The translations under genes and the position numbers were made by a program. 64,000 nucleotides of DNA. Origin: Elusimicrobiota bacterium (GTDB taxonomy: Bacteria > Elusimicrobiota > Elusimicrobia > Elusimicrobiales > UBA9959). The notes beneath the pieces are model-generated. The model searched no databases, was not told the DNA's origin, and was given only the letters and a program-made list of their open reading frames with translations. Below, one piece after another: positions 1-60,207 of the stretch (the first letter of the stretch is position 1; each line of letters opens with the position of its first letter). The stretch spans positions 22,519 to 86,518 of the forward strand of contig JAJUJA010000003.1 in NCBI GenBank assembly GCA_029267355.1, given 5' to 3'.

Positions 1-1101
1 TCTCCTCACCCCTCAAATGCCAGGATGACAGAGCGCACAGCAAGCAGGGTTCTGGATTTTATATTTTCATGTCCGTCGAAGGAAATCAGCATTGAATTCC
101 AGGGCGGCGAAGCGCTGCTTAATTGGCCTGTTTTAAAAAAATCGGCCGAAAAAGCTGCGGCGCTTGCCGCAAGGAAGGATAAAGATCTCAATGTTTCAGT
201 GGTTACAAATCTTTCGCTGATGAATTTTCAAATGGCGGATTATCTTTGCGAAAATGGAATTTCAGTATGCACCTCTCTTGACGGGCCGAAGGAGATTCAC
301 GATAAGAACCGGCTTTTTTTTGCCGGCTCATCGCATGATTTGGCTGTAAAATGGCTTGAGTATTTAAGGAAAAAAGTTTCTGCGGGGAAAGGCCGCAAGG
401 ATTCGCTGCCTTCGGCTTTGATGACTACCACAAGATTTTCACTTTCTGCGGCTGAAAAAATCGTAAGTCATTATCACAGCCTCGGCCTTGGCGGAATTTT
501 CATAAGGCAGCTTTCCCCCATAGGATATGCCAAAAATGTCTGGGATAAGATAGGATATTCTCCGGAGGATTTCCTCCGCTTTTATGAAGAGGCGCTTGAT
601 TGCGTGCTTAAAATAAACGGAAAAGGCGAAAGATTTATAGAGAGAAATGCCGCCATAAAACTTAAAAAATTGCTTTTTCTAAAAGACCCGAATTTTCTGG
701 ACCTGCGCTCTCCCTGCGGAGCTGCCATAGGACAGCTGGCCTACAATTGGGACGGTTCCATTTATACCTGCGATGAAGGAAGAATGACCGGCGCCGCGGG
801 CGACGATTTCTTTAAGGTCGGCAGCGTGTTTTCTTCTTCTTTCAGGGATGCTGTAAGCTCGCCGGCGGCAAAGATTTGCGCCATGTGTTCCTGCCTTGAA
901 AATCAGCCGTCCTGCTTCAGATGCGCGTTCAAGCATTATTGCGGAATTTGTCCTGTTCACAACTATGAAACTTCGGGAAGTCCGTGGGGCAATGCCGGGT
1001 TTGGCGGCTGGTGCGAGATTGAGAAGGGAATTTTCAAGATACTTTTGAAAAAAATGCGGAACAAAGAGAATAAGAAAATTTTTCTGGGATGGTTTGACTG
1101 A
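1..1101 (+). CDS. Radical SAM enzyme with C-terminal SPASM domain (anSME/peptide-maturase-like), 5'-truncated by the window edge
   Basis: Frame 1 is open from nt 1, with no stop before the ATG at 25. The FQGGEALL (GGE motif) lies about 25 aa into the ORF, but the CX3CX2C motif that normally precedes it is missing, so the N-terminus lies upstream of the window. SPASM-type cysteines are present: CGAAIGQLAYNWDGSIYTC ... CFRCAFKHYCGIC ... WC. Confidence 0.8.
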   Translation, partial: SPHPSNARMTERTASRVLDFIFSCPSKEISIEFQGGEALLNWPVLKKSAEKAAALAARKDKDLNVSVVTNLSLMNFQMADYLCENGISVCTSLDGPKEIHDKNRLFFAGSSHDLAVKWLEYLRKKVSAGKGRKDSLPSALMTTTRFSLSAAEKIVSHYHSLGLGGIFIRQLSPIGYAKNVWDKIGYSPEDFLRFYEEALDCVLKINGKGERFIERNAAIKLKKLLFLKDPNFLDLRSPCGAAIGQLAYNWDGSIYTCDEGRMTGAAGDDFFKVGSVFSSSFRDAVSSPAAKICAMCSCLENQPSCFRCAFKHYCGICPVHNYETSGSPWGNAGFGGWCEIEKGIFKILLKKMRNKENKKIFLGWFD

Positions 1102-1988
1102 TGCCTGATATATGCTTTTGGAATAAATGCGACAATAAATGCATAATGTGCACAAATCCGCCGGAGTTTTCAAGATCTTCTCCGGAAGGGAACTATGATT
1201 TTAAAACGCAGCTTGCAAAACTTGAAGCTTATCTTTCAGGCAATAAAGATACCTACTATTCAAACAGGCGCCGTCATGATTATATTTCCATTACAGGCGG
1301 CGAGCCGACAATGCATCCTGATTTTTTTGCGCTGCTTTATGCCGTAAGAAAACGGCTTCCTCAGACCCCTATAACTCTTCTTACCAACGGAAGAAGGCTC
1401 GGCGATAGAAAATTCTTTGAAAAATTTCTTAAAATAGCAAAGCAGCCTTTTTCCGTGGGCGTGCCTTTGCATTCGCAAGACAGGCAATTGTTTGAAAAAA
1501 TAACCGGCGTTAAAGGCAGTTACCTGCAGACTTTATCCTGCCTGGACAATTTGTTTGCACGCTTTCCTGGCGATGTTCAAATCAGAGTTGTCATTCATAA
1601 GCTTAATTACAAAAAAATAGGCGATATAGCGGCCTTTATCTCAAAAAGGTGGGGCAAACGCTTTAAAGCTGCTCTTATACACTATGAAATAGAAGGAATG
1701 TCAGATATAAATTCAAAAAAGGTGGGCCTTAAGCTGACGCAGTCTGCGAAAGCGATAGAAAAAAGCGCAAAAGCTCTTTCAGGGCTTGATTTTGAATTGT
1801 ATCATTATCCCCTGTGTGTTTTGTCCGATTCTCTAAGAGATAAAGCGAGAATAACTCTTCCGGGGGAGGAAAGGGTTTATCCGCCGGTTTGTTTTAGGTG
1901 CGCATTGAGAAAAAAATGTCTTGGACTTATGAAGGAATATTTTAAAGTTTACGGTTATTCTGAACTGAAGGCCCAAAGGAAGATATGA
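1101..1988 (+). CDS. Compact radical SAM enzyme, paralog 1 of 4 (CX3CX2C plus C-terminal CX2CX5C)
   Basis: CDNKCIMC (CX3CX2C) near the N-terminus, ITGGEPTMHPDF, and C-terminal PLC...CFRCALRKKCLG. The start ATG shares a base with the upstream TGA (TGATG). Confidence 0.85.
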   Translation: MPDICFWNKCDNKCIMCTNPPEFSRSSPEGNYDFKTQLAKLEAYLSGNKDTYYSNRRRHDYISITGGEPTMHPDFFALLYAVRKRLPQTPITLLTNGRRLGDRKFFEKFLKIAKQPFSVGVPLHSQDRQLFEKITGVKGSYLQTLSCLDNLFARFPGDVQIRVVIHKLNYKKIGDIAAFISKRWGKRFKAALIHYEIEGMSDINSKKVGLKLTQSAKAIEKSAKALSGLDFELYHYPLCVLSDSLRDKARITLPGEERVYPPVCFRCALRKKCLGLMKEYFKVYGYSELKAQRKI

Positions 1989-3163
1989 AGATTCATTCCA
2001 TCATAGGATATGCAGCTCTGATATTTTTTGTAATTTGGGGCTATTTTATATCTGTAGAAGACCTTAAAACAAGCAAAATATCAAACAAAAGGATAATCCT
2101 GGGTTTTCGGCTTCTTTTTGTTTTCTTCATCGCCCAGGCCGCAAACAGCATTTTAGGCAAATACGGATACGGAGAGATATACCTGAACAAAATTTATTTC
2201 TACTACCTATTTCTGAACATGGCTTTGGCGATTATGGGAGGCATAATTCTTTGGTACGGCGAAATCTGGCCCGCGGGAGACGCCAAGTTTTTTATAACTT
2301 CCGTTTCGCTGCTGCCTCTGGCCTTGCCGGAGATAGCCGGTTTTCCCGGGTATTTATGGCTTTCAGTGCTTATAAATACTTTTGTTATTGCCGGGATATA
2401 CGCAGTGGCGCGTTTTCTTTATGAAAGCTACAGAATGAAGCTGAGCGGCGATAACGACGCTTTTAAGGAGCTTAGAGATTTTAAGGAAAAGATAAGGGCT
2501 TTTTTTGCCGAGAATTCCGGCAAGACCGCGGCTCGAAAAATAGCAGGAATTTTTTTCAGTCTGGGCATAATATTTCTGGCCAAGCAGGTTTTGAATATGT
2601 ATTTGATGGGCCTTTTAGGCAGAAGCCTTTCAAAGGCTTATATAATATACTTTCTGCTGTTTTTCGGCTGGGAAAAGGCCGGAAAAATTTTTCAAAAGAA
2701 ATCATGGAAAATAGCCATGGGCGTCCTGTACGCCGTTTATTTTTCTGCCGGAATGATTTTTTTCAGGGATGAGGTTTTAAGCCATGTCTTGAAGGCGCTT
2801 TCAAATGTCGTTAAGTTCAGCGTGATTTTAACGCTTGGAAGATTTGTGCTTGAGTATCTGGTTGAAAAGAAAAACGCTTACTGGGTTTCATCAAAGGATG
2901 TCAAAGAAGGCATGGTCCTGTCATCTTTTTCCATTAAAAGCGTAAGAACCAATGAGGAAATAGCGCCTCTTTTTGAGGGTTACTATAAGGACGGTATAGA
3001 CTCAGAGCAGGCGCAGGCCCTGTCCGCGTGGCTGTCAAAGATAGACGGAGGAAAAGGTAAACTGGAGATGGTCAAGGGCTATCCGTTTGCTTTTTGGATT
3101 TACCTCGGCTGTATTTTTTTGCTGGTTTTTAATAAAAGTATCCTCTCCTTCATAAGGTTATGA
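1985..3163 (+). CDS. Polytopic membrane protein with A24 (prepilin/preflagellin-type) aspartyl-peptidase motifs and a large internal insertion
   Basis: Many hydrophobic segments. SVEDLKTSKISNK resembles the first A24 Asp motif (D-x5-I/L-P-N/D). WPAGDAKFF resembles the second (G-x-GD-x-KL). C-terminal GYPFAFWIYLG resembles the A24 PFGP-x-L tail. ATGA overlaps at both ends (1985-1988 and 3160-3163). Confidence 0.6.
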   Translation: MKIHSIIGYAALIFFVIWGYFISVEDLKTSKISNKRIILGFRLLFVFFIAQAANSILGKYGYGEIYLNKIYFYYLFLNMALAIMGGIILWYGEIWPAGDAKFFITSVSLLPLALPEIAGFPGYLWLSVLINTFVIAGIYAVARFLYESYRMKLSGDNDAFKELRDFKEKIRAFFAENSGKTAARKIAGIFFSLGIIFLAKQVLNMYLMGLLGRSLSKAYIIYFLLFFGWEKAGKIFQKKSWKIAMGVLYAVYFSAGMIFFRDEVLSHVLKALSNVVKFSVILTLGRFVLEYLVEKKNAYWVSSKDVKEGMVLSSFSIKSVRTNEEIAPLFEGYYKDGIDSEQAQALSAWLSKIDGGKGKLEMVKGYPFAFWIYLGCIFLLVFNKSILSFIRL

Positions 3164-4101
3164 ACGAAAATAAACAGGAAAAAAGACAGAAACTTGTGAT
3201 TTTTACGGGTTATGCCTGTAATAACAATTGCGTTTTCTGCATAAACGCAGATAAAAGGCAGATAAGGCCGAAAAATACCCAGGAATTGCTCAAAGAGATT
3301 TATGCTTCATCCAAAAAAGGGATTGAAATACTTGAACTTATCGGCGGAGAGCCCTCAATAAGAGATGATTTCTTTCTGCTGTTATCCGCCGCTAAAAAGG
3401 TGGGCATAAAAGAAACTGTAATAGCGACAAACGGCAGAATGTTTTCAGATTTTTCCTTTGCCAAAAAGGCGGTTGAAAGCGGTCTTGGCGCAATAATATT
3501 TTCGGTTCATGGAAGTCATGCCCGGCTGCACGATATGCTGACTCAGGCGCCAGGCTCTTTTTCGCAGCTTAAAAAAGGAATCGAAAATTTCAGAAAGTTG
3601 AAGTTCCCCAAAATAAACGGCAATACAACTGTAGTAAAGCAAAATATGAGGGATATTCCAAAAATAGCGGATTTATATGTTTCAAAAGGAATCAGGAACG
3701 TTGAGTATATATTCGTAGATCCCAACTACGGCGGCGCGAAAAATAACTTTGAAAAATATGTTCCTAAAATATCAAAGGCGGCCGTTTTTATTAAAAAAGC
3801 TTTGGATATCGGTCTTAAGGCCGGTTATGATCAATGGAAGGCAAGATATGTGCCGCTTTGCCATTTTAAGGGCTATTTTGACCATATAAGCGAGATAAAC
3901 GAGAGAAAGCTTTTTTTTGTAAGGCATTCCGCTCCGGATTTTAGAAATGAGGATGTTTTATCTTCCAGAAGAAAAGCAGGAAGAAGGAAGACCGCCGCCT
4001 GTAAGGGCTGCGCCGTTTACAGGCTTTGCGAGGGTATCTGGGTGGAATATATAAGCAGGTACGGCGATGGAGAGCTTAAGCCGGTTAAAAATGGAAATTA
4101 A
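3160..4101 (+). CDS. Compact radical SAM enzyme, paralog 2 of 4
   Basis: YACNNNCVFC (CX3CX2C), ELIGGEPSIRDDF, and C-terminal PLCHF...CKGCAVYRLCEG (CX2CX5C). Confidence 0.85.
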   Translation: MNENKQEKRQKLVIFTGYACNNNCVFCINADKRQIRPKNTQELLKEIYASSKKGIEILELIGGEPSIRDDFFLLLSAAKKVGIKETVIATNGRMFSDFSFAKKAVESGLGAIIFSVHGSHARLHDMLTQAPGSFSQLKKGIENFRKLKFPKINGNTTVVKQNMRDIPKIADLYVSKGIRNVEYIFVDPNYGGAKNNFEKYVPKISKAAVFIKKALDIGLKAGYDQWKARYVPLCHFKGYFDHISEINERKLFFVRHSAPDFRNEDVLSSRRKAGRRKTAACKGCAVYRLCEGIWVEYISRYGDGELKPVKNGN

Positions 4102-5149
4102 AGAAAAAGAAGTACAGCTTGCCGTATATCCGTGGGGTGATTGCAATATGCGCTGCCTTTACTGCTCATACAGGGGCGCGCGCGGGACTTTAAAGATAAA
4201 AGATTTTGTATCAGTTTTGAAATTCCTCAAAAAAGTTGAGCCGGGTTTTTCTAAGATAACTTTTCTCGGCGGCGAGCCGACCTTAAAACCGCGTCTTTTA
4301 AGAGCTTATTTTGAAGCGGCCGGGATAAATGCGCCGGATTGCCGGCTGTTTCTCTTTACCAACGGCCTTGAGGTTGAAGAAGGTGTTTTCAGGATTTTAA
4401 AAGAATTCAATGTTAATGTCGTCTTGAGCATAGACGGATTTGAAAGGGTAAATTACAGCCAACGGAGCAGGGCCGATAAGAAAAAGTATTCGCCCTTAAA
4501 AATAGCCGAAAAGTTTCTGTCGGCCGGGCTTAATTCTCTCGCTTTCTCTCTTACCGTTACGCCCGATAATGCCGCGTTTCTTGTTTCAAATTTGAAAAAA
4601 ATGGCGCTGCTGGGCGCTTCGGCCATAGGGTGGAATGCGGATTATGCGGCTTCATGGAGCGATTCGGATTTGAAACAGCTTAAAAAACAGATTGAAGGCG
4701 AGCGGTTATTTTATCTTAAGCTTTTAAGAGCCGGCAAGCCTTACAGAATTTCAAATTGTTATGAGCTTATGGAGGAGATTGGAAGCGGCAATAAAAGTTC
4801 CTGTTCGGCCTTTTCCCTATTCCCTGACGGTAAAATATACGCCTGCGACAAGGTATTTTCTGCCCCTTTGGAGAAAAGAAAAAAGGCCGTTTTATCAAGG
4901 GATAATTTCAAAAAAGACAGAAAAAAATTTTTCAGCACGGCCCTGAAGGCCGGCTTTGAAGATAGGGGGCTTATTTGCAGGGCAGGACTGTATTTTTATC
5001 ATAAATTTGTAAAATGTCTTGAAGGAAAAGCTCTTGAAGAAAGTCTATCGGTTTCTTTGAAGACAGCCGCCCTGATTGAAAGGGAAAAGATGAAAAGCTT
5101 GAGATTATTTATGAAATACGGCCTTTTCAGGAAGCTTCACGGATTATGA
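4067..5149 (+). CDS. Radical SAM enzyme with twitch/SPASM-like C-terminal region
   Basis: DCNMRCLYC (CX3CX2C), ITFLGGEPTLKP, CSAFSLFPDGKIYAC (C-x8-G-x4-C), and later Cys residues in ICRAG...KCLEG. It overlaps the upstream gene by 35 nt, or by 11 nt if the ATG at 4091 is the start. Confidence 0.8.
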   Translation: MESLSRLKMEIKEKEVQLAVYPWGDCNMRCLYCSYRGARGTLKIKDFVSVLKFLKKVEPGFSKITFLGGEPTLKPRLLRAYFEAAGINAPDCRLFLFTNGLEVEEGVFRILKEFNVNVVLSIDGFERVNYSQRSRADKKKYSPLKIAEKFLSAGLNSLAFSLTVTPDNAAFLVSNLKKMALLGASAIGWNADYAASWSDSDLKQLKKQIEGERLFYLKLLRAGKPYRISNCYELMEEIGSGNKSSCSAFSLFPDGKIYACDKVFSAPLEKRKKAVLSRDNFKKDRKKFFSTALKAGFEDRGLICRAGLYFYHKFVKCLEGKALEESLSVSLKTAALIEREKMKSLRLFMKYGLFRKLHGL

Positions 5150-6321
5150 GCGAAAAAGATACGGATAAAGGTTCCTGCTATGAAATATTGCTGAATTACA
5201 ATTGCAATGCGGCCTGTTCTTTTTGTTCGCAGGGCAATTTTGACAAATCCCTGAACGCGCCTTTTGAACTCATAGCCAGGGAAATATATACGGCTAAAAA
5301 GAACGGCTTTTCAAGACTCGGTTTCAGCGGCGGCGAGCCGACCGCCAATAAGAATCTTCTTAAAGCAGTAAAGCTTGCCAAAAGCGTTGGATTTAATTTT
5401 ATCAGGATACAGACAAACGGGATAAGACTCAAGGATTACTCTTATTGCCGCAGTTTAAAAAAAGCCGGGCTTACTTTCTGCAAATTTTCTTTTACAAATG
5501 ACGATGCTGTTGTGCATGACAGTCTGACGCGTGTGAACGGCTCGTGGGAGAGCGCCTCAAAAGGCCTTGAAAACATGAAAAAACTCAAGGTCAGGCTCGG
5601 CAATAATATCGTAATAAACCGCTACAACTATAACCGTCTAAAGTCCATAGTAGAGTATTTCCTCAAGAGAGGGATTTCCAATTTTGTAGTAATATACCCT
5701 ATATACACTGGTTCAATGGCAAAAAACGGCAAAAAACTGGGAGTTTCACTGCCGGACTGCGCCCCTTACTTCATGGAGACGCTTTCTTTTATGGCCTCCA
5801 TGGATATGGCCGGAGAAATCCTTTTCCTTAATGTGCCGCCATGTTTTTTGCCCGGTTATGAAAGCAATGCGATAGGAGGGGACAGGTTCAATACTGTTGT
5901 AGCCGACCCGGACGGGGGCACTATGGACCTGGACGAAAGTGCCGATTTAAACAAAAAGAAAGGCAAGCCGTGCCGATTGTGCCGGCTGAAAAACAAGTGT
6001 CACGGCGTTGATGCAGGGTATTTGAAGATTTTCGGATGGGAAGGTTTCAAGCCGGCTTCATTGAAAAAGCCGGTGCAAACTGTAGTTTCCAGGGCGTCCT
6101 ATTATACAGACAATGAAAGATGCATGATTGAGATACTTAAAAAAAGGGGAGCATTGAGCACTTCAGAGCTTTTAAAAGAGTCTCAAAAACTGGCTATTTG
6201 CAAGGATTGTTCCGACGGAGCTGCCGTAATATCTGCAGGAGAAAAGCTTTTGAAAAGAAAATTGGTGGCAAGAGAATTTAAGAAAGGCGCTTATATCTGG
6301 AAGCTGACGGGAAAAATATAA
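5146..6321 (+). CDS. Radical SAM enzyme, paralog 3 of 4, with an extra C-terminal winged-helix-like domain
   Basis: YNCNAACSFC (CX3CX2C), GFSGGEPTANKN, PPCFLPG...CRLCRLKNKCHG (CX2CX5C). A tail of about 70 aa follows (ERCMIEILKKRGALSTSELLKES...LVAREFKKGAYIWKLT) with a wHTH-like pattern. ATGA overlap at 5146-5149. Confidence 0.8.
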   Translation: MSEKDTDKGSCYEILLNYNCNAACSFCSQGNFDKSLNAPFELIAREIYTAKKNGFSRLGFSGGEPTANKNLLKAVKLAKSVGFNFIRIQTNGIRLKDYSYCRSLKKAGLTFCKFSFTNDDAVVHDSLTRVNGSWESASKGLENMKKLKVRLGNNIVINRYNYNRLKSIVEYFLKRGISNFVVIYPIYTGSMAKNGKKLGVSLPDCAPYFMETLSFMASMDMAGEILFLNVPPCFLPGYESNAIGGDRFNTVVADPDGGTMDLDESADLNKKKGKPCRLCRLKNKCHGVDAGYLKIFGWEGFKPASLKKPVQTVVSRASYYTDNERCMIEILKKRGALSTSELLKESQKLAICKDCSDGAAVISAGEKLLKRKLVAREFKKGAYIWKLTGKI

Positions 6322-7172
6322 TGCTTTTAAGAGTTATAAAAAACTGCAATCAAAATTGCGTTTTCTGCTCTTTTGACGAGAAAAAGACTGACAGACAGGA
6401 AAATCTCGCTTCTTTGGCCGCAAAGGAAAAAAAAGGTCCGGGCCTTATTCAGATTTCAGGCGGCGAGCCGCTTCTTTGCCGGCCTCAGGATTTGCTTGAT
6501 TTTTGCGGTAGGCTTGTCAAAAAAGGGAAGACCATAGAATTCCAAACCAACGGCACTCTTGTGGAATCTTTTCCGCCGGCATATTTATCAAAACTGGTTC
6601 GCTTAATTTCAGCAAGAAAAGGATATTTCAATATTAACTTTTCAGCCGCAGATGCCAAAGCTGATTTGAAAATAACTGGCCTTAAGGAAGCATTCCTGAA
6701 AAGGCTTAAGGCCGTTAAAATACTTAAATCCCTCAAAGCGGCTATAAGGCTTACTTTTGTGATAAACTCCATCAATTACAAGACTTTGAAATCTTTTGCG
6801 GTTCTGGCCGCCGGCCTGAAGCCGGATTTGATTCAGTTTAGTTTTGTTAAAGGACAGGGCAGCGCCTCAGGCAAAAAAAACATCATTCCCTCATACGAAA
6901 GCGTCTCTCCTTTTCTTATGGCAGCCATGGAAATCCTTGAAGGCAAAAAAATAAACTTTGAAATTGACCATATGCCCTGCTGCCATCTCGGCAGATTCTG
7001 GCGTTTTAATGTGGATGTGGATAAAGCCTTAAAAGGCCTGGACGGGCCGCATAAAAGCGAAAAGATACATGTTAAACAGTGCGGCGGATGCGGACTGAGA
7101 AAAGTTTGTTTCGGACCGAGAAAAGATTATTTGAAAGTGAGGAAATTCAGAAAAGGCAGGATAGCGCTATGA
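6321..7172 (+). CDS. Compact radical SAM enzyme, paralog 4 of 4
   Basis: KNCNQNCVFC (CX3CX2C), QISGGEPLL, and MPCCHLG...CGGCGLRKVCFG (CX2CX5C). TAATG overlap with the upstream gene. Confidence 0.85.
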   Translation: MLLRVIKNCNQNCVFCSFDEKKTDRQENLASLAAKEKKGPGLIQISGGEPLLCRPQDLLDFCGRLVKKGKTIEFQTNGTLVESFPPAYLSKLVRLISARKGYFNINFSAADAKADLKITGLKEAFLKRLKAVKILKSLKAAIRLTFVINSINYKTLKSFAVLAAGLKPDLIQFSFVKGQGSASGKKNIIPSYESVSPFLMAAMEILEGKKINFEIDHMPCCHLGRFWRFNVDVDKALKGLDGPHKSEKIHVKQCGGCGLRKVCFGPRKDYLKVRKFRKGRIAL

Positions 7173-8389
7173 GAAAAGAGCTGGCTCGCCTTTTCCCCGC
7201 CATTAAGAAAAAGATAAACGGGAAAGAACTTGTTTATCTTGACAGCGCCTGCACCGCTCTTAAAAATTCGGTTTCCGCGGAAATACAGGAAAAAAGTCTG
7301 CTTGAAGAAGGCTTTTGCGCCGGAGCAAGGTCTTTTAACGATGCTTCAATTCTGGCTCAGGAAAGGTTTTTACTATCCAGAAAAAAAATTGCCTGCTCTA
7401 TTAATGCCAAAGAAAGAGAAATAGTCTTTGTTTCAGGCGCCACTGAAGCGGCTAATATGGTAGCCGCTTCATTTCCCTTTAAAGCCGGAGATGAAATATT
7501 TCTGAGCGCTTTGGAGCATAATTCGGTGTTTTTGCCTTTTTGGAAAGCCGCAAAAGAAAAGAAACTTAAAATCAGGATAGTGCCTCTTAGAAATTACAAA
7601 GCTGATCTGAATCATTTCCGCCGGCAGGCCGGGAAAAAGGCCAGGATGCTTTGCCTTACCATGTCTTCAAATCTTACAGGCGGCGCGGAGGATTTTGCGG
7701 GTTTTGTATCCTTTTGCCGTCAAAAAGGCATAAAGGTCTTTCTGGACGCGGCGCAGTACATATCCTCGCATGGCCTAGATTTCGGCAAAACAGGCGCTGA
7801 TTTTGCGGTTTTTTCAGGCCATAAAATATCGGCCCCCTTCGGCACGGGAGTTCTTGCCGTGAGAGAAGACAATTTCAAACTGCTCAGGTCCTCAAAGCTT
7901 GGCGGCGGCACAATAGTGAAAATAGTCAAAGACGGCGGCTTGTATAAACCCTGTCTTCTGGATAATAATGCTTCTTTTGAGGCCGGCATACAGAATTATT
8001 CCGGAGCCCGCGCTCTGGCCGAAACTTTTTCGATTCTGGAAGAAACCGGTTATAAAAAAATAAGAACGCATATCGCCGGGCTTTGTAAAACGGCTTATGA
8101 AGTTTTAAGCTCAATAGACGGCATTAAAATCATCGGCGGCGGGCATGAGCAGGGTTCTCTGCTTTCTTTTGTTTTTGAGGGCAAGTTATCGGCGGCTGAT
8201 TTTCAGCTTTATGCCCGGGATGCCTGCAAGGCAAGTCTTGCTTTCAGAACGGGAAAAATGTGCGCAGATTTGGCCTGTCTTAATCTGGGCATAGACGGGG
8301 CTGTGAGGATTTCGTTCGGATTTTACAATGAAAAAAGGGATATAGAAATTTTTGCTCAAACCTTGAAAGATTTTTTGAGAGAATCATGA
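7169..8389 (+). CDS. Class V aminotransferase / cysteine desulfurase (SufS/CsdA-like)
   Basis: LDSACTALK near the N-terminus, the FSGHK PLP-lysine motif, and C-terminal RTGKMCADL resembling the SufS R-x-G-H-H-C active-site Cys loop. I placed the start at ATG 7169 (ATGA overlap with the upstream stop) rather than the track start at 7079, which lies inside the previous gene. Confidence 0.8.
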   Translation: MRKELARLFPAIKKKINGKELVYLDSACTALKNSVSAEIQEKSLLEEGFCAGARSFNDASILAQERFLLSRKKIACSINAKEREIVFVSGATEAANMVAASFPFKAGDEIFLSALEHNSVFLPFWKAAKEKKLKIRIVPLRNYKADLNHFRRQAGKKARMLCLTMSSNLTGGAEDFAGFVSFCRQKGIKVFLDAAQYISSHGLDFGKTGADFAVFSGHKISAPFGTGVLAVREDNFKLLRSSKLGGGTIVKIVKDGGLYKPCLLDNNASFEAGIQNYSGARALAETFSILEETGYKKIRTHIAGLCKTAYEVLSSIDGIKIIGGGHEQGSLLSFVFEGKLSAADFQLYARDACKASLAFRTGKMCADLACLNLGIDGAVRISFGFYNEKRDIEIFAQTLKDFLRES

Positions 8390-9090
8390 AAAAGAAAAAG
8401 CTTCATATCTGTTCTTTCGGGCTTAAACCGTCGGATATCTCAATTGAAGCGGCTCAGATCATCAGGAACTGTGCGGTTGTATCAGATTCTCTTAGAAGCG
8501 ACAATAAGCTGGCTGAAGCGGCAAAAAGCTTTTCCTTCGCCAGGGCCTTTAATGATAAGGGCGAAAAGGGGGATTTAGAGAGAGAAATAAGAAAAGCGCT
8601 CAAAGAAAACGGCGAGGCCGCATATTTTACCTGCGGGAATCCGCTTTTTTTAAATGAGCTGCATTTGGGAATTATGAAAAAATTTTCAGCCGAAGCCGAT
8701 ATCAGGCTTTATCCGGCAGTTTCTTCGCTGGATTATGTTTTTCAGTTCATAAGGGAAAAATTTTTAATAGATGATTTTGACTGCGTCTGCCTTATGCGCC
8801 CCAGATTTTTCCCCAGGGAATATTCATATTCGCCTTTGCTGGTCTTTAATCCTTTTTCTCTGCTTAAAGATGCGGGAATAATGAAAAAATTCTGTTCCAT
8901 TGTAAGGCAGTATTATCCTGGCAGCCATAAAGCCTATGCAATAAAGCTGCCGGCATACCCGGATTACAGCTGCAGCTTGAGAAAATCCAGCGTTAAGGAT
9001 ATAGAAAAATTTTTGAGAAAAATGTCTCCAGAAGAGACCTTGTATCTGCCGGGCAATTTTAAAAATGAGAATTGCGAAAATGACTGGTGA
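8386..9090 (+). CDS. Tetrapyrrole-methylase-fold (TP_methylase superfamily) protein, divergent
   Basis: The motif order matches the fold: KLHICSFGLKPSDISIEAAQIIRNCAVV (cf. LYIVGIGPGD...L..A...l..advv), GEAAYFTCGNPLFLNE (cf. V-x-L-x-x-GDP), and IRLYPAVSSLDYVF (cf. v-PG-v-SS). GDP is changed to GNP. ATGA overlap at 8386-8389. Confidence 0.5.
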   Translation: MKKKKLHICSFGLKPSDISIEAAQIIRNCAVVSDSLRSDNKLAEAAKSFSFARAFNDKGEKGDLEREIRKALKENGEAAYFTCGNPLFLNELHLGIMKKFSAEADIRLYPAVSSLDYVFQFIREKFLIDDFDCVCLMRPRFFPREYSYSPLLVFNPFSLLKDAGIMKKFCSIVRQYYPGSHKAYAIKLPAYPDYSCSLRKSSVKDIEKFLRKMSPEETLYLPGNFKNENCENDW

Positions 9091-18267: not shown

Positions 18268-20541
18268 ATGAAATATTGGCTGTATGAGAATGGAAGCATT
18301 TCAGGCCCGTTTGAGGCGCAAGAGCTTTTGATTAAGCCTTCTTTCGGTCCAGATTCCATGGTATGCGAAGCTTCCCTTTCGGGCTCAAGCCCTGATGACT
18401 GGAAAAGAGCCGCAGTCGTGCCCGAGCTTTCGTCCTTTTCAGTGCTGACGCAGGACAAATTCCAGCCGTCAAACAGCGATTATCCGTTTGACTATCAAAG
18501 CGAACTTTCCCATCCCAATATAATAGACAGCATAGACGATACGCTGTCTTCGCTTGATTTTCTTTCTTCTTCTCAGGTAGAAGAGGAAACTGATTCCTTT
18601 GACCTTAAGATTTCCCAGATAAAAGAGCAGCTGGAAACGGCAGTGTGGGAAAAAAATCTGTTAATGGAGAAGGTCAATATAAAAGAGGCAAGAGAAAAGG
18701 AGTACAGGGAAAAAATAAAGGAGCTTGAAGAAAGAGTCGATGAGCTGATAAAAAGCTCTCTGAAAAAGGCTTATGAGACTTCAGGTTTGCGGCCTGAACC
18801 CGTTTCTGCAGTAAAGGAAGAAGCAGAAGAAAAAACTGAGGCCGAAGGCCTAAAAACCGAGCCTGCCGGTAAAGTTGAAGTTAAAACCGGAATTTCCAAA
18901 AAATCTGAAGAAATTCCGGCAGAGAGTCCGCAAAAAGAAAGCAGTTTTTCAAAAGAAGAAAAAATGGAGACGGTTCAAAAGCCTCAAATAGAAGAAAAGC
19001 GTGAGAGTTTCAAAAAAATTTCCGCAGACATGGATAATTATAAGCTTGGAAGCGAGAGACTCATAGATTCCTATCCTCAGGAAAAAGAGGATATGGAAAT
19101 TTTTGATCTTAAAAGTTTCGGCTCTCAAAAATTGGAGGCTAATCCTTATGAGAAGGTCTCAATAGAGCCGGATTTTTCTCCAAGCATAATAGAGATTTCA
19201 AAGCCTGCAGCTGAAATTGATGCCGATTTTTCGCAGATAGCTGCCAAAAAAAATATTCCACAGACCGATATCGGCAAGCAGGAAAATGCCGCCGGACTTG
19301 CTCAGACTCCGCAAGAGTATAAGCCTTTTGAGGAGACTGCCAAGCCTGAACCTGCTGAAAACGCTGCGGAGCCGCCTGTTTTTATTCCGGAGCCTCAGCC
19401 TGAAATACCTGAATTTAAGCCGGAAACCGCGCTTAAAAAAGAGCCGGAACCGCAAAAAACTGAAACCGTTCAGAGCGTAAACCCTTCTGAGCCTAAAAAA
19501 CCTGATATAAAGGTCTCAACCGGCTCGTTCAGCAATATAAGCGAGATAAACATAGAAATACCCGCGGCTTCCAAAAGCCATGTTCTGGATATACCTTCCA
19601 TGACGGCCCGCAGAAAAAAGGATGAGGAGACTTCTTCAGCGGCTAAAGCGGAAGCCGTGTCCCTGTCTCCGTCAGAGCCCAAGACGCCCATTGACCCTCA
19701 GGTCACTCAGAGAATAGAGGTTAAAAATCTAAAGCAGACAGTGGTCGTCCCGGCCAGGCAGACAGCTTATTCTCCCAGGAAAAACAAATTTAAGCTTTAT
19801 ATATCCCTGGCAATATCGCTTATGATAATAGTCGGCGGCTTTCTGTTTCTTGTGGATTTCAGGAAATCATCAAAAAAGTCAAACCTTATGACCGCTTCCG
19901 CAGCTGCGGCAGGGGAAAAGAGCATGCAGGAAACTCAAAGCCCCGCCGCCCAGCAAACGCCCCAGGAGGAAACCAAGCCGCAGCAGGAGAAGGATGCCGG
20001 CGCGCAGGAAGAAGCGGTTGAAACTTCTCAGCCTTCAGTTTCTATTAATCAGGGCGTTCAAAAAGCCATAGATTCGGTTAAAAATTTTAATCTCTCTGAC
20101 GGCCGCGGCACGGTTTCAAACTGGTTTTCAAATTCTTTCGTTTCATCCGGGCAGTCAAGGGAAGAATGGACGGCTACTCTGCTGCAGGGGAAAATATTCG
20201 TCGTCCAGTACAGGCTTATAAGGCAGAAGCAGGAGCCTTTGGTGTATCAGTTTGAAGTAGATTCGGAATCCGGCCGCATACTCAGAGGCATAAACAATAA
20301 TGCCATAGATCTTTTGGAATCTTCCAGCGAAAAAAATCAGGCCAAAAAATCCGTTCAGCAGGCTAAGCCGAAGCCCGTTAGAGTTAAAAAACCTGCCGCC
20401 GCCAAAAAAGATTCCCTGATGCCTCTTCCCGAAAGAGACGCCGAGGATTATTCCGAGCCGACAGGCTTTGAAAACTCTGATATGATCTCCAAGGCCCCGT
20501 TAAAAATCACCGCTCCGGAAAGCGATGATGAGCTTTTTTAA
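18268..20541 (+). CDS. GYF_2-like N-terminal domain / coiled-coil / Glu-Pro-Lys-rich / single-TM protein with a C-terminal extracytoplasmic domain
   Basis: MKYWLYENGSISGPFEAQELL resembles the GYF_2 (DUF4339) signature. Coiled-coil stretch KISQIKEQLE...ELEERVDELIK. About 350 aa of low-complexity E/P/K sequence (PEPQPEIPEFKPE...). One TM (LYISLAISLMIIVGGFLFLV). A C-terminal region of about 200 aa follows. Confidence 0.5.
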   Translation: MKYWLYENGSISGPFEAQELLIKPSFGPDSMVCEASLSGSSPDDWKRAAVVPELSSFSVLTQDKFQPSNSDYPFDYQSELSHPNIIDSIDDTLSSLDFLSSSQVEEETDSFDLKISQIKEQLETAVWEKNLLMEKVNIKEAREKEYREKIKELEERVDELIKSSLKKAYETSGLRPEPVSAVKEEAEEKTEAEGLKTEPAGKVEVKTGISKKSEEIPAESPQKESSFSKEEKMETVQKPQIEEKRESFKKISADMDNYKLGSERLIDSYPQEKEDMEIFDLKSFGSQKLEANPYEKVSIEPDFSPSIIEISKPAAEIDADFSQIAAKKNIPQTDIGKQENAAGLAQTPQEYKPFEETAKPEPAENAAEPPVFIPEPQPEIPEFKPETALKKEPEPQKTETVQSVNPSEPKKPDIKVSTGSFSNISEINIEIPAASKSHVLDIPSMTARRKKDEETSSAAKAEAVSLSPSEPKTPIDPQVTQRIEVKNLKQTVVVPARQTAYSPRKNKFKLYISLAISLMIIVGGFLFLVDFRKSSKKSNLMTASAAAAGEKSMQETQSPAAQQTPQEETKPQQEKDAGAQEEAVETSQPSVSINQGVQKAIDSVKNFNLSDGRGTVSNWFSNSFVSSGQSREEWTATLLQGKIFVVQYRLIRQKQEPLVYQFEVDSESGRILRGINNNAIDLLESSSEKNQAKKSVQQAKPKPVRVKKPAAAKKDSLMPLPERDAEDYSEPTGFENSDMISKAPLKITAPESDDELF

Positions 20542-20581: not shown

Positions 20582-22354
20582 ATGAGCGAGAAAGGATTCC
20601 AGATAAATATTTCCAGGCGGCTTGGCGAAATGATAGTTTCAAGCGGCGTCATAACCTCTTCGCAGCTTGCGGAAGCCCTTGAAATACAGAAGCAAACCGG
20701 GGTGAAGCTTGGTCAAATTTTAATAGAGAAGCAGTATGTCACCGAAAGGCAGCTTCTTGAATTTTTGAGCAAACAATTTTCCCTTGAGTTCATAGAAATT
20801 TCCAAAATGGAATTGCCGCAGGAAGCTATAAAAGCCGTTCCTGAAAGCGTGGCCAGAAGATACCGGCTGATAGGCATAAAAAAAGAGGCCAATTATCTTA
20901 AAGTCGCCATGGAGGATCCTTTGAATATAGTTGTCCTGGACGATTTGAAAATGATGACCGGACTTGACATAAAGCCGGTTTTCGCTTCCGAAAAGGAAAT
21001 TTTTGAAGCAATAGACAGATACTACGGAGCTAAAAACTCGCAGGAAGCCCTCAATGAGATACTTAAAAAAACGAATGCTGACGAAAGCTCCGTTCAGCTG
21101 GACCTTGTGGATGAAAAATCCAAAGCCGGCGAAGAAGATATAATTTCGCTTGAAGGCAAAGGCGAGGCCGCGCCCATAGTCAAGATGGTAAATCTGATAA
21201 TTTCATCGGCTATAAAATCGCATGCTTCAGACATACACATAGAACCGAGCTACAAGGATACCAGAGTGCGTTTCAGAATAGACGGCGTGCTGCATCCTCA
21301 GCCGGCGCCGCCCAAGAAGTTTCATAATGCCATAATAAGCAGAATAAAGATAATGGCAAATCTGGATATTTCTGAGAGAAGAATACCCCAGGACGGAAGG
21401 ACAAAGCTTAGAATAGAGGACAAGGAAATAGACCTTAGAATATCCATACTTCCCTGCGGGCCGGGGGAAAAGGTTTGCATGAGAATACTTGATTCGTCAG
21501 GTCTTAAGCTTAAGCTTGAGGACCTTGGTTTTGAACCGGAAAATCTGGCCATTTTTTCAAAGTGCATAAAGGCGCCGCACGGAATAAACCTTATAACAGG
21601 CCCTACGGGTTCCGGCAAATCAACCACGCTTTACTCGGCTCTTTCAACGCTAAACGGGCCCGATGTGAATATTTCAACCATAGAGGATCCAATAGAATAC
21701 AACCTTGAAGGCATAAATCAGGTAGGCGTAAATTCGGAAGTGGGCCTGACATTTGCCGCCGGCTTGAGATCTTTCCTGAGGCAGGACCCGGATGTGATAA
21801 TGGTGGGAGAAATAAGAGATTTTGAGACAATGTCGATAGCAATAAACGCTGCCATGACCGGGCATCTGGTGTTTTCAACGCTGCATACAAATGACGCGCC
21901 CGGCGCCATAACAAGAATCGGTATGATGGGCATAGAGCCGTTTTTGACCTCTTCCACTCTGCTTATGGTCGTGGCCCAAAGACTTGTAAGAAGCGTATGC
22001 AAAAACTGTAAAGAGCCCTATGAAATAAAGCCTGAGCTTTTGACCGGCATGGGGGTAAGCAGGCAGCTTATTGACAAACATACAAATGACGGAAAGCTTT
22101 TTCTATACAGAGGCCGGGGCTGCGAAAAATGCGCAAAGACCGGTTATAAGGGGAGAGTCGGCATACACGAGATACTTGAAGTGAACGATTCAATAAGAAA
22201 GCTTATAATAGAGAAAGCGGATGCCGGCAGAATAAAGGAAGACGCCAAGAAAAACGGCATGATAACATTGAGAGAATCTGCTGTCAGAAAAATGCTGGCC
22301 GGCCTCACCACCATAGAAGAGGTTATAAGGGTTACCGGCTCTGATGTAGATTGA
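20582..22354 (+). CDS. pilB: Type IV pilus assembly ATPase PilB (GspE family)
   Basis: N-terminal T2SSE_N-like repeat, Walker A GPTGSGKSTT, Asp/His boxes (MVGEIRD, TGHLVFSTLHTND), and the tetracysteine CKNC...CEKC. Confidence 0.9.
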   Translation: MSEKGFQINISRRLGEMIVSSGVITSSQLAEALEIQKQTGVKLGQILIEKQYVTERQLLEFLSKQFSLEFIEISKMELPQEAIKAVPESVARRYRLIGIKKEANYLKVAMEDPLNIVVLDDLKMMTGLDIKPVFASEKEIFEAIDRYYGAKNSQEALNEILKKTNADESSVQLDLVDEKSKAGEEDIISLEGKGEAAPIVKMVNLIISSAIKSHASDIHIEPSYKDTRVRFRIDGVLHPQPAPPKKFHNAIISRIKIMANLDISERRIPQDGRTKLRIEDKEIDLRISILPCGPGEKVCMRILDSSGLKLKLEDLGFEPENLAIFSKCIKAPHGINLITGPTGSGKSTTLYSALSTLNGPDVNISTIEDPIEYNLEGINQVGVNSEVGLTFAAGLRSFLRQDPDVIMVGEIRDFETMSIAINAAMTGHLVFSTLHTNDAPGAITRIGMMGIEPFLTSSTLLMVVAQRLVRSVCKNCKEPYEIKPELLTGMGVSRQLIDKHTNDGKLFLYRGRGCEKCAKTGYKGRVGIHEILEVNDSIRKLIIEKADAGRIKEDAKKNGMITLRESAVRKMLAGLTTIEEVIRVTGSDVD

Positions 22355-23510: not shown

Positions 23511-24710
23511 ATGCTTTTTTCCTACAAGGCCAAAGATCCAGCCGGCAAGATTCTTGAGGGCGAAGTTGAGGCCCAGGATGAAAAAGCGGCTTCGGCAAAA
23601 CTCAGGGCACAGCGCTTTGTAGTTTTAAGCATAGAAAAATCCAAGGTTAAAAAAAAGAAAAAGGGCAAGGTTTCCTCAAAGGAAATAGTCATATTTTCCA
23701 GGCAGCTGTCGACACTTGTTTCAAGCGGCGTGCCCATAGTTCAGGGTTTAAGCATACTTGAATCGCAGGCTGAAACTCCAGCTTTTTCTTCAGTTATAGC
23801 CAACATAAGAACGGATATAGAGGGCGGCCTATCCATTTCCGAGGCGATGAGAAAGCATCCCAAGGTTTTTTCCGAATTGTATGTGTCAATGATAAAGGCC
23901 GGTGAGACCGGCGGCATACTGGACACCATACTTGAGAGACTTTCCTCATATCTGGAGTCTTCAGAGGCCCTTAAAGCCAAGGTAAAAAGCGCCATGATGT
24001 ATCCTATGGTGGTAGGCGGAGTGGCGGCCTCAATAACCGTTTTTCTCATAATTTTTGTTATACCCATATTCAAGGGAATTTTCGCCAGTTTCGGAGCGGA
24101 ATTGCCTTTTCTTACCAGGATGATAATAGGCGCCTCTGACATGTTGAGGGCCAATATTATCTACATACTTATCGTTTTAGGCGGCGCTTTTTACGGAGCG
24201 AAAAAATATTTGCAGACAGAGCAGGGAAAAAGAAAATTCGATGAGACCGCCCTTAAATTGCCGGTTTTCGGAATACTTTTGAAAAAAGTCGCCATAGCCA
24301 AATTTTCAAGAACCCTTGGAACTCTTATCAAATCCGGCGTGCCCATACTTCAGGGACTTGAAACCGTCGCCAAAACAGCCGGCAATAAAGTAATAGAAGA
24401 AGCCATAATGAAAAGCCGGGATTCCATAAAAGAGGGCGGCCGTCTGGCTGAGCCGCTGAAAAAATCCAATCTTTTTCCTCAGATGGTTGTACAGATGATA
24501 GGAGTGGGTGAAGAGACGGGAAGCCTTGATACCATGCTTATAAAAATAGCCGACTTTTATGATCAGGAAGTGGATACGGCCGTAAAAGGCCTGACATCCA
24601 TGATAGAGCCGCTGATAATGGTCTTTATGGGCGTTGTAATAGGCTTTATAGTCATAGCGATGTTCATGCCCATGTTTGAGCTTGGAGACCTGGCGTCAAA
24701 GGCCAACTGA
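23511..24710 (+). CDS. pilC: Type IV pilus platform protein PilC (GspF family)
   Basis: Two T2SSF repeats (FSRQLSTLVSSGVPIVQGL and FSRTLGTLIKSGVPILQGL) and three TM segments. Confidence 0.9.
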   Translation: MLFSYKAKDPAGKILEGEVEAQDEKAASAKLRAQRFVVLSIEKSKVKKKKKGKVSSKEIVIFSRQLSTLVSSGVPIVQGLSILESQAETPAFSSVIANIRTDIEGGLSISEAMRKHPKVFSELYVSMIKAGETGGILDTILERLSSYLESSEALKAKVKSAMMYPMVVGGVAASITVFLIIFVIPIFKGIFASFGAELPFLTRMIIGASDMLRANIIYILIVLGGAFYGAKKYLQTEQGKRKFDETALKLPVFGILLKKVAIAKFSRTLGTLIKSGVPILQGLETVAKTAGNKVIEEAIMKSRDSIKEGGRLAEPLKKSNLFPQMVVQMIGVGEETGSLDTMLIKIADFYDQEVDTAVKGLTSMIEPLIMVFMGVVIGFIVIAMFMPMFELGDLASKAN

Positions 24711-55335: not shown

Positions 55336-55406
55336 TCCCGGGTGGTGTAACGGTAACACAGCGCCCTTTGGAGGCGTTGTTCATGGTTCGAATCCATGCC
55401 CGGGAG
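55336..55406 (+). tRNA. tRNA-Gln (anticodon UUG), no encoded CCA
   Basis: Hand-folded cloverleaf. Acceptor TCCCGGG/CCCGGGA (U1-A72) with G73. D arm GTGT-AACGGTA-ACAC. Anticodon arm GCGCC-CTTTGGA-GGCGT. 4-nt variable loop. T arm CATGG-TTCGAAT-CCATG. Confidence 0.9.
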
Positions 55407-60093: not shown

Positions 60094-60207
60094 AAGCAAA
60101 GGTAAATCCTTATAAATATAAATTTTACAAAAATGTAACATAAATAAAACCTGCCCTCTTGTATAATAAAAATGTAAAAGCTGCAGCGGTCTTAAAGCGG
60201 AGAAAAT

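Follow-up and report, generated by a model that had tools for sequence, protein, structure and literature searches.

In textbook terms, the presence of an A24 peptidase is a marker of type IV pili, type II secretion, Tad pili or archaella. These enzymes cleave on the cytoplasmic face of the membrane, and a hydrophilic leader preceding a hydrophobic stretch is the general layout on which they act (PMC4471445). The other described systems that come close to the locus studied here are of the His-Xaa-Ser (Hxs) type. In the E. coli representative of the E. coli/Klebsiella HXS antiphage system (HxsD-HxsB-HxsC-HxsA), the precursor HxsA is matured in the cytoplasm by HxsB, HxsC and HxsD, and it requires N-terminal processing, dependent on radical S-adenosylmethionine (rSAM) enzymes, and export (Nat Commun 2026, PMC13128918). 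Replacement of the signal peptide does not abolish the N-terminal cleavage, for which no protease was named; more than 99.8% of the published HXS systems have four genes, 99.7% are found in Pseudomonadota, and they include no membrane protease (PMC13128918). A variant termed 'rare' is represented by the NCBIfam models HxsA4 (NF038313) and HxsC4 (NF038332). The present work concerns a membrane protein of 392 amino acids (aa) encoded at positions 1985-3163 (+) of a 64,000-nucleotide stretch of Elusimicrobiota DNA (contig JAJUJA010000003.1). This whole stretch is called the window; coordinates refer to it, and L001 to L092 denote fetched relative loci. We propose that the protein, a putative divergent intramembrane aspartyl protease of the A24/GxGD type, is a dedicated and conserved component of the HxsA4-type rSAM maturation systems of Elusimicrobiota and Omnitrophota and acts as the leader protease of HxsA4, a proposal to which we give about an even chance of being right.

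The original prediction had identified the product of this open reading frame (ORF) as an A24-type membrane protein on the basis of three motifs, all of which are present: VEDLKTSKISNK (aa 24-35), WPAGDAKFF (aa 95-103) and GYPFAFWIYLG (aa 365-375). It had also suggested a Pfam search. Compared with PF01478, the divergent, prepilin-peptidase-like window protein matched over aa 13-141 and covered all 104 profile positions, with an E value of 0.0072 and a score of 17.2 bits, which is below the cutoff of 26.5. Yet 48 of 102 diverse family members matched the same profile at E<0.01 (best E value 7.5e-9), and the Pfam cutoff was passed by four individually scanned members (P0028, P0069, P0135 and P0102 with 32.3, 29.4, 27.6 and 27.3 bits, respectively). 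Because these full-length homologs pass the cutoff, transitive sequence homology makes the window protein a genuine, if strongly divergent, member of the A24 superfamily, even though its own score lies below the threshold. The region that passes in the homologs is the same A24 core that covers the profile in the window protein (2021-2407 (+), TM1-TM5, TM standing for transmembrane helix).

A word-indexed search returned 21 homologs, all from Elusimicrobia and each annotated as 'hypothetical', as the proteins of this family are listed in public records. By exhaustive profile search 1355 cluster representatives (50% identity) were obtained at E<=1e-3, 177 of them at E<=1e-30, and nearly all were full-length proteins of 370-550 aa. 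When one genome per GTDB species was scanned, relatives were found in 228 genomes, and the best 80 of these were from Elusimicrobia only. No model in NCBIfam or PADLOC matched the membrane protein.

In an alignment of 102 diverse members, which extends to approximately 20% identity, residues D26, W90, G98, D99, K101, G337 and F368 were invariant, whereas N34, W95, A97, A100, N131 and F133 were conserved in at least 90% of the sequences. Conservation of the two Asp residues, on which the catalytic assignment in the original prediction depended, was thus borne out, and D26 and D99 were invariant also across the 21 close homologs. The putative first catalytic residue, D26 (codon 2060-2062 (+)), is part of a D-x5-[IV]-x-N motif at the end of TM1. 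The putative second one, D99, is in WPAGDAK (aa 95-101; 2267-2287 (+)), a variant of GxGD-K: in P-A-G-D-A-K the Gly at -1 and the Lys at +2 are kept, and the Gly that GxGD has at -3 is replaced by Pro. The sequence AGD[AST]K was found in nearly all of 167 family sequences. The first motif, written in full as D-x-x-T-x-[KR]-I-x-N, presumably bears the closer resemblance to TadV/CpaA/FlaK.

With TadV/CpaA and the archaeal FlaK/PibD, which are short prepilin or preflagellin peptidases lacking a methyltransferase domain, the window protein shares the match to the full PF01478 profile, the Asp at the end of TM1 and the G-D-x-K at the start of TM4, the predicted cytoplasmic position of these Asp residues, and the lack of the PF06750 domain; in addition, two members of its family match weakly to Arc_PepC (PF06819), the C-terminal domain of archaeal A24 enzymes. 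It differs from them in its size (approximately 390 aa versus 140-250 aa), in having WPAGDAK instead of GxGD, in the approximately 220-aa insertion that precedes the last helix in its family, and in its genetic context, which consists of rSAM genes rather than pilins, archaellins or filament ATPases in the surveyed loci. What it has in common with PilD/GspO, the bifunctional type IV prepilin peptidase/N-methyltransferase, is the membrane aspartyl protease logic; in addition, the motifs around the first Asp and, at the C-terminus, PF(G/A)P/xW(L/I) can be aligned. When hhalign was run against E. coli GspO alone and against an alignment of 37 PilD/GspO sequences, the correct motifs were paired and significance was not reached (E 0.03-0.07). 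The D26 stretch was weakly paired with the first-Asp motif IDFxTQLLPD of GspO/PilD, and the PFAxWI tail of the family alignment stood opposite PFGPxLA of the 37 sequences, also weakly (E 0.033). The case for membership therefore rests on the Pfam matches of the family members. Of the claim that GYPFAFWIYLG (3077-3109 (+)) is the C-terminal motif of A24 peptidases, the invariance of F368 stands, but the alignment with the PilD-type tail is weak. Canonical GspO homologs carry PF06750, the N-terminal Zn-binding/methyltransferase domain of PilD, besides PF01478, whereas no match to PF06750 was found in the window protein or in its family. PDB sequence searches with the single protein and with the 21-sequence, 102-sequence and N-terminal-domain profiles retrieved neither FlaK nor any other A24 structure. 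The window protein is not an ortholog of PilD, TadV or FlaK.

An AlphaFold2 model (pLDDT 84.9, pTM 0.79) combined with hydropathy gave ten TM helices. TM1-TM5, spanning aa 3-146, make up the A24 core. The family-specific insertion that follows (aa 150-364; 2432-3076 (+)) was delimited by the model, conservation, hydropathy and the positive-inside count, and comprises an amphipathic, highly charged helix (aa 161-176), four additional TM helices (over aa 178-297) and a small alpha/beta domain (aa 298-364) with a conserved DGLTxEQ and the invariant G337; the last TM helix then begins with the PFAxWIxxG motif. The size of this insertion agrees with the approximately 200 aa noted in the original prediction: D99 and F368 are 269 residues apart, compared to 47 residues between the equivalent D158 and F205 of E. 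coli GspO. A weak match of aa 238-284 to YtoQ/Nuc_deoxyri_tr3 falls inside TM helices and was rejected as a chance match. Since two TM helices lie between D26 and D99, the two residues are on the same side of the membrane. Lys and Arg residues, counted by eye over the loops, number approximately 32 on this side and approximately 8 on the opposite one. By this asymmetry, a cytoplasmic location is predicted for both Asp residues as well as for the charged helix and the small domain. The topology check called for in the original prediction thus came out in its favor, with D26 and D99 predicted to be at the cytoplasmic membrane face. Other family members reach 440-550 aa.

This anatomy also bears on a non-proteolytic role, in which the protein would use an A24-like fold as a membrane component of the Hxs system, either as a scaffold holding the cytoplasmic rSAM enzymes at the membrane or as a conduit for export or insertion of modified HxsA4. 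The family-specific part (aa 150-364) makes up over half of the protein and has its own invariant residues such as G337, and accessory Hxs proteins have been proposed to be dedicated chaperones or translocators (PMC13128918). Moreover, the hydrophobic segment of HxsA4 is Sec-like and is accompanied in some members by an AxA-like site, so that a leader protease is perhaps not needed. On the other hand, the invariance of both Asp residues and of their G-D-x-K context in 102 sequences down to approximately 20% identity is hard to explain without catalysis, and an Omnitrophota member of only 311 aa (L092) has dropped the cytoplasmic domain yet retained the Asp motifs. Taking these observations together, we consider a scaffold or conduit without protease activity unlikely, though deserving of serious attention.

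Judged by its profile matches, the operon containing the gene is an Hxs system: its HxsB is bona fide, and it further encodes an HxsC-like enzyme and paralogs resembling HxsC4. This identity was missing from the original prediction. The window begins within the gene of the HxsB rSAM/SPASM maturase (1-1101 (+)), the start of which is upstream; the C-terminal approximately 358 aa that are present score 366.5 bits with TIGR03978 over profile positions 114-465, and the full-length ortholog in the lineage of the 72% ortholog (L001:7744-9117) scores 427.3 bits, above the cutoff of 370. The gene directly before the A24-like one codes for an HxsC-like rSAM enzyme of 295 aa (1101-1988 (+)), for which TIGR03977 (HxsC) was the best match with 166.4 bits, short of the cutoff of 267.9, and which matches PF04055 with an E value of 6e-16. 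On the other side there is an HxsC4-like rSAM enzyme of 313 aa (3160-4101 (+)) with NF038332 (HxsC4) as its best match. Both flanking genes are coupled to the A24-like gene as had been predicted, and both ATGA junctions were confirmed in the sequence: the ATG of the A24-like gene (1985-1987) overlaps the TGA of the upstream rSAM gene (1986-1988), and its TGA (3161-3163) overlaps the ATG of the downstream rSAM gene (3160-3162).

The window-type systems resemble the HXS antiphage system in having HxsB, an HxsC-like rSAM enzyme, HxsD and a His-Xaa-Ser precursor with an N-terminal hydrophobic signal. They are unlike it in that the clusters contain 7-12 rSAM genes, SufS-like, U32-like, TP_methylase-like and sometimes nitrogenase-paralog genes, and the A24-like protein, and in that the precursor, which is of the HxsA4 type, is small, has 10-30 HxS repeats and lacks a peptidoglycan-binding domain. 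The four-gene composition HxsD-B-C-A is not matched by the window cluster. The likeness to the 'rare' NCBIfam variant is closer in kind, inasmuch as the flanking rSAM enzyme has HxsC4 as its best match and the (HxS)n ORF of a related locus (L003:2673-3047) is HxsA4 by NF038313 (74.2 bits, cutoff 55); in the window, however, the HxsC4-like enzyme scores only approximately 148 bits, far under the cutoff of 500.

To describe the neighborhood, approximately 85 Elusimicrobia loci were surveyed with 10-kb flanks, ORFs being classified by phmmer against the cluster proteins. A neighbor was defined as the nearest same-strand ORF matching a query protein, so an unrecognized gene may intervene. In 51 of 85 loci the upstream neighbor was HxsC-like, and in 29 it was a different rSAM gene (rS_300 in 15, rS_C4a in 5, rS_L3_353 in 4, rS_L3_361 in 3 and HxsB in 2). 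Thus, among the 82 loci in which the gene was not at the edge, an rSAM gene (HxsC-like included) was upstream in 80, and HxsA in the remaining two (L062 and L073). Of the 79 loci not at an edge on the other side, 77 had an rSAM gene as the downstream neighbor; the HxsC4-like gene took this position in 52 of the 85 loci. HxsB was present inside the flanks of 64 loci, HxsD of 38 and an (HxS)n precursor of 25. Orthologous loci share the order rSAM-HxsB-HxsC-[A24-like]-rSAM x4-SufS. The association extends to distant members: L088 has an rSAM gene directly upstream, and L090 has an HxsA4-like precursor and a SufS-like gene, an upstream rSAM gene and, on the downstream side, a TP_methylase-TPR gene, with the HxsC-to-A24-like pair kept. 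In two Omnitrophota operons that were fetched starting from HxsA4 precursors, the A24-like gene (271 bits in L091, 142 bits in L092) directly follows an HxsC-like gene. The co-occurrence with rSAM genes, which the original prediction had asked to be checked, therefore recurs in approximately 85 loci and in a second phylum.

The window also contains pilus genes, namely pilB (T2SSE, 20582-22354), pilT and pilC (23511-24710), 17 kb from the A24-like gene, and no canonical pilD is found beside them or elsewhere in the window. A phmmer search of the window with GspO gave no match, and a motif search by regular expression returned only the 1985-3163 ORF and a chance GVGDPK in an M20 peptidase, in agreement with the prediction that this is the only A24-like gene in the window; a second one was not found in any fetched locus either. 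These facts, and a first Asp motif that we take to be TadV/CpaA-like, would fit a housekeeping prepilin peptidase, that is a functional PilD/TadV for type IV pilins merely encoded in an Hxs operon. We regard this as very improbable. The gene is translationally coupled to rSAM genes and is embedded among such genes in approximately 85 loci and two phyla, with no pilins and no pilus or filament ATPases as neighbors in the survey, and within the window, 17 kb of DNA with genes for the M20 peptidase, ornithine carbamoyltransferase, glutamyl-tRNA synthetase and other housekeeping functions lie between it and pilBTC. Moreover, the PF06750 domain of the canonical homologs is absent, and the approximately 220-aa insertion alters the architecture. 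The original prediction had stated that it would have to be abandoned in the case of a missing A24 profile match, of variable Asp residues, or of a pilD ortholog in an ordinary pilin operon in related genomes. Since the family matches the A24 profile, the Asp residues are conserved and no pilin-operon context was seen in related loci, none of these objections holds.

What the protease might cleave is suggested by the precursor. HxsA4-like proteins gave 786 matches, found in Elusimicrobia and Omnitrophota, and 16 precursors were aligned. Their Lys-rich N-terminus is followed by [KR]FL[NST]SEE[GA]K[MIV][LV]x[SKA]D[IV][VL]K, then by 13-15 uncharged residues (..LGI[LIV]G..) and an acidic patch often ending in ..SAQ; the repeat region consists of H[ST]N, in the form of an H[ST]N[YF] motif ahead of the repeats, and 10-30 HxS repeats. 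F17, S20, E21, E22, L37, G38 and G41 are invariant. The leader is hydrophilic, 17-37 residues long, and its last residue, ahead of the hydrophobic stretch, is Gly in 13 and Ala in 3 of the 16 precursors. It is extremely conserved, while the A24-like protein diverges to 20-25% identity. The conserved C-terminus after the HxS repeats is RGGWC, or G(Q/S)W in divergent lineages; conceivable roles of these HxsA4 termini are those of a crosslinking site, a ligand for a metal or a signal for sorting.

A prepilin-like leader on the substrate had been anticipated in the original prediction, and in one respect this was correct, since HxsA4 does have a hydrophilic leader that ends in Gly or Ala and is followed by a hydrophobic stretch. 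Over the 21 residues past the leader Gly, however, mean hydropathy is approximately 1.0 with 3-5 charges, compared to 2.1-2.8 and a single charge in E. coli GspG-J, and there was no match of HxsA4 to the Flp_Fap or pilin profiles of Pfam at E<=10. HxsA4 is therefore no pilin, and its leader does not qualify as a canonical class III signal peptide. A Flp-like or class III leader was accordingly rejected: the layout is reminiscent of one, but hydropathy and charge fail the published definition (PMC4471445), and Pfam offers no match. Past the hydrophobic stretch, some HxsA4 members have an Ala-x-Ala-like site, and processing by Sec/signal peptidase I is therefore an alternative for HxsA4. The FLxSEEG spacing presumably matches the leader RFLKDESG of Caulobacter PilA/Flp, which we take as no more than a lead.

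If the A24-like protein is the leader protease of HxsA4, the following sequence of events can be envisaged. The cytoplasmic rSAM enzymes would first modify the (HxS)n region, and the short hydrophobic segment of the precursor would then engage the membrane. There, on the cytoplasmic side, the protease would cleave off the leader, the bond behind the Gly/Ala of FLxSEE(G/A)|K being the likeliest site, and release of the leader would commit the modified HxsA4 to export or membrane anchoring, thereby coupling modification to export. The approximately 220-aa insertion with its four TM helices and cytoplasmic domain may dock the HxsA4 precursor or the rSAM enzymes.

The original prediction had regarded the protein as the leader protease or partner of the rSAM substrate. 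Synteny with the rSAM genes makes this the most economical reading, but HxsA4 is not visible in the window lineage, and this weighs against HxsA4 as the substrate. Six-frame motif scans for HxsA4 found none in the window, L001, L002 or L007, and neither HxsA4 nor HxsD was found in the window, nor, for these three orthologous loci, in their 10-kb upstream flanks. Likewise, the genome of the 72% ortholog (locus tags AB1637_*) is not represented among the 120 listed matches of the HxsA4 family search. An active A24 protease with a substrate other than HxsA4 has thus to be considered. It could cut a different membrane or secreted protein, either unlinked or from the cluster, such as a Cys-rich signal-anchored protein of 240-372 aa encoded beside HxsA4, or else serve the nitrogenase-paralog/rSAM pathway of these clusters. 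In the window lineage, the protease occurs together with seven rSAM genes and no visible HxsA4; HxsA was within 10 kb in only 25 of 85 loci; 19 loci, as well as L091 and L092, have the conserved anchored protein next to HxsA4; in 11 loci the A24-like gene is flanked by NifH and NifH-NifDK paralogs; and the family member in L089 is without recognizable rSAM neighbors. However, detection of HxsA was limited by the 10-kb flanks, both HxsA4 operons that were fetched from the precursor side (L091 and L092) contained the protease, and among the candidate recognition elements none is as conserved as the HxsA4 leader. A different substrate is, in our judgment, quite unlikely.

The Cys-rich protein itself is unannotated, has an N-terminal hydrophobic anchor or signal and no family match, and is encoded between HxsB/HxsD and HxsA4 in the Elusimicrobia loci and the two Omnitrophota operons mentioned (e.g. 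L003:1547-2665, L091:9027-10004 and L092:9192-9914).

The nitrogenase-paralog genes found on the same strand in the 11 divergent Elusimicrobia loci code for a NifH-like protein (PF00142, approximately 273 aa) and a NifH+Oxidored_nitro (NifH-NifD/K) fusion of approximately 790 aa (L065:9095-13467, L059:3961-4878, L067, L070, L078, L080, L081, L083, L064, L013 and L025). In groundwater Elusimicrobia, novel 'group VI' nitrogenase paralog clusters with up to 13 rSAM genes have been described (Meheust et al., bioRxiv 10.1101/765248), and the loci listed here appear to be these clusters. In L059, HxsD-HxsB-HxsA4 share one operon with the nitrogenase-paralog genes, which suggests that the substrate of such clusters is a peptide or protein and not a free tetrapyrrole.

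A wider version of the proposed HxsA4 leader protease can be formulated, which we put forward tentatively and with more doubt than confidence. In this version the large unrecognized branch of A24, with its more than 1300 clusters (at 50% identity), would serve rSAM-modified HxsA4 both as leader protease and as export gate, and HxsA4 would be the first non-pilin class of substrates; this would identify the kind of enzyme behind the N-terminal processing in Hxs systems, and the target that the nitrogenase-paralog enzymes act on, or furnish with a cofactor, would be a His-rich peptide of ribosomal origin and not a free tetrapyrrole.

Literature searches revealed no paper tying A24 or prepilin peptidases to rSAM, Hxs or ribosomally synthesized and post-translationally modified peptide systems. 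It appears that the A24 protease family has been co-opted for a task other than pilus assembly, and a large subfamily fixed in rSAM maturation clusters would broaden the roles assumed for this class of proteases. The A24-like protein is a candidate for the membrane processing of Hxs-type precursors, a step left open in the study of the E. coli system (PMC13128918). The assignment also offers an annotation for more than 1300 protein clusters currently 'hypothetical', and it connects Haft's HxsA4/HxsC4 models, the HXS defense system and the nitrogenase-paralog/rSAM clusters of Elusimicrobia, which had previously been separate.

Beyond the HxsC4-like gene, the cluster continues with three further rSAM enzymes, classified by Pfam and NCBIfam profile scans: a PapB/SPASM-like one of 360 aa (4067-5149 (+)), an HxsC/HxsC4-like one of 391 aa (5146-6321 (+)) and an HxsC-like one of 283 aa (6321-7172 (+)). 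These are followed by a SufS/CsdA-like class V aminotransferase of the cysteine desulfurase family (7169-8389 (+); PF00266, 244 bits; TIGR01979, 245 bits, below cutoff), the ORF of which opens at 7079 and has its probable start at 7169, as deduced from a 407-aa ortholog. A TP_methylase-fold protein of 234 aa (8386-9090 (+); PF00590, 27.9 bits, cutoff 27.8) ends the conserved block in the window lineage, where the cluster comprises at least seven rSAM genes in addition to the SufS-like, TP_methylase-like and A24-like ones and is adjoined by a shikimate operon. TP_methylase neighbors recur beside distant family members in L089 and L090. Such proteins, some fused or adjacent to TPR repeats, were seen near very distant members (L089:4832-9808; L090:11382-12803), besides the one in the window, and may represent a second conserved partnership of the family alongside the rSAM genes.

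Upstream of the cluster, a U32-family protein and an unannotated 232-aa protein precede rSAM-HxsB-HxsC in the 72% ortholog (L001:3717-6864) and in L004:4050-5591. The U32-family protein matched UbiU/TrhP-like O2-independent hydroxylases best, but with scores far short of the cutoff. In the window lineage only, the genes upstream of rSAM-HxsB-HxsC also include one for a 543-aa protein that has a PEP-utilizer swivel domain.

In the rest of the window, a 757-aa ORF (18268-20541 (+)) directly upstream of pilB had no Pfam match at E<=1e-4, and pilC is not followed by pilD. The strong A/G skew at the 3' end (60196-64000 (+); AT skew approximately 0.33) is explained by a single open frame of more than 1268 codons running off the window; its product is rich in Glu, Lys, Ala and Leu and coiled-coil-like, and no rRNA, Rfam family or tandem repeat was found in this region. 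The sole Rfam match in the window at gathering thresholds is one tRNA gene (55336-55406 (+)).

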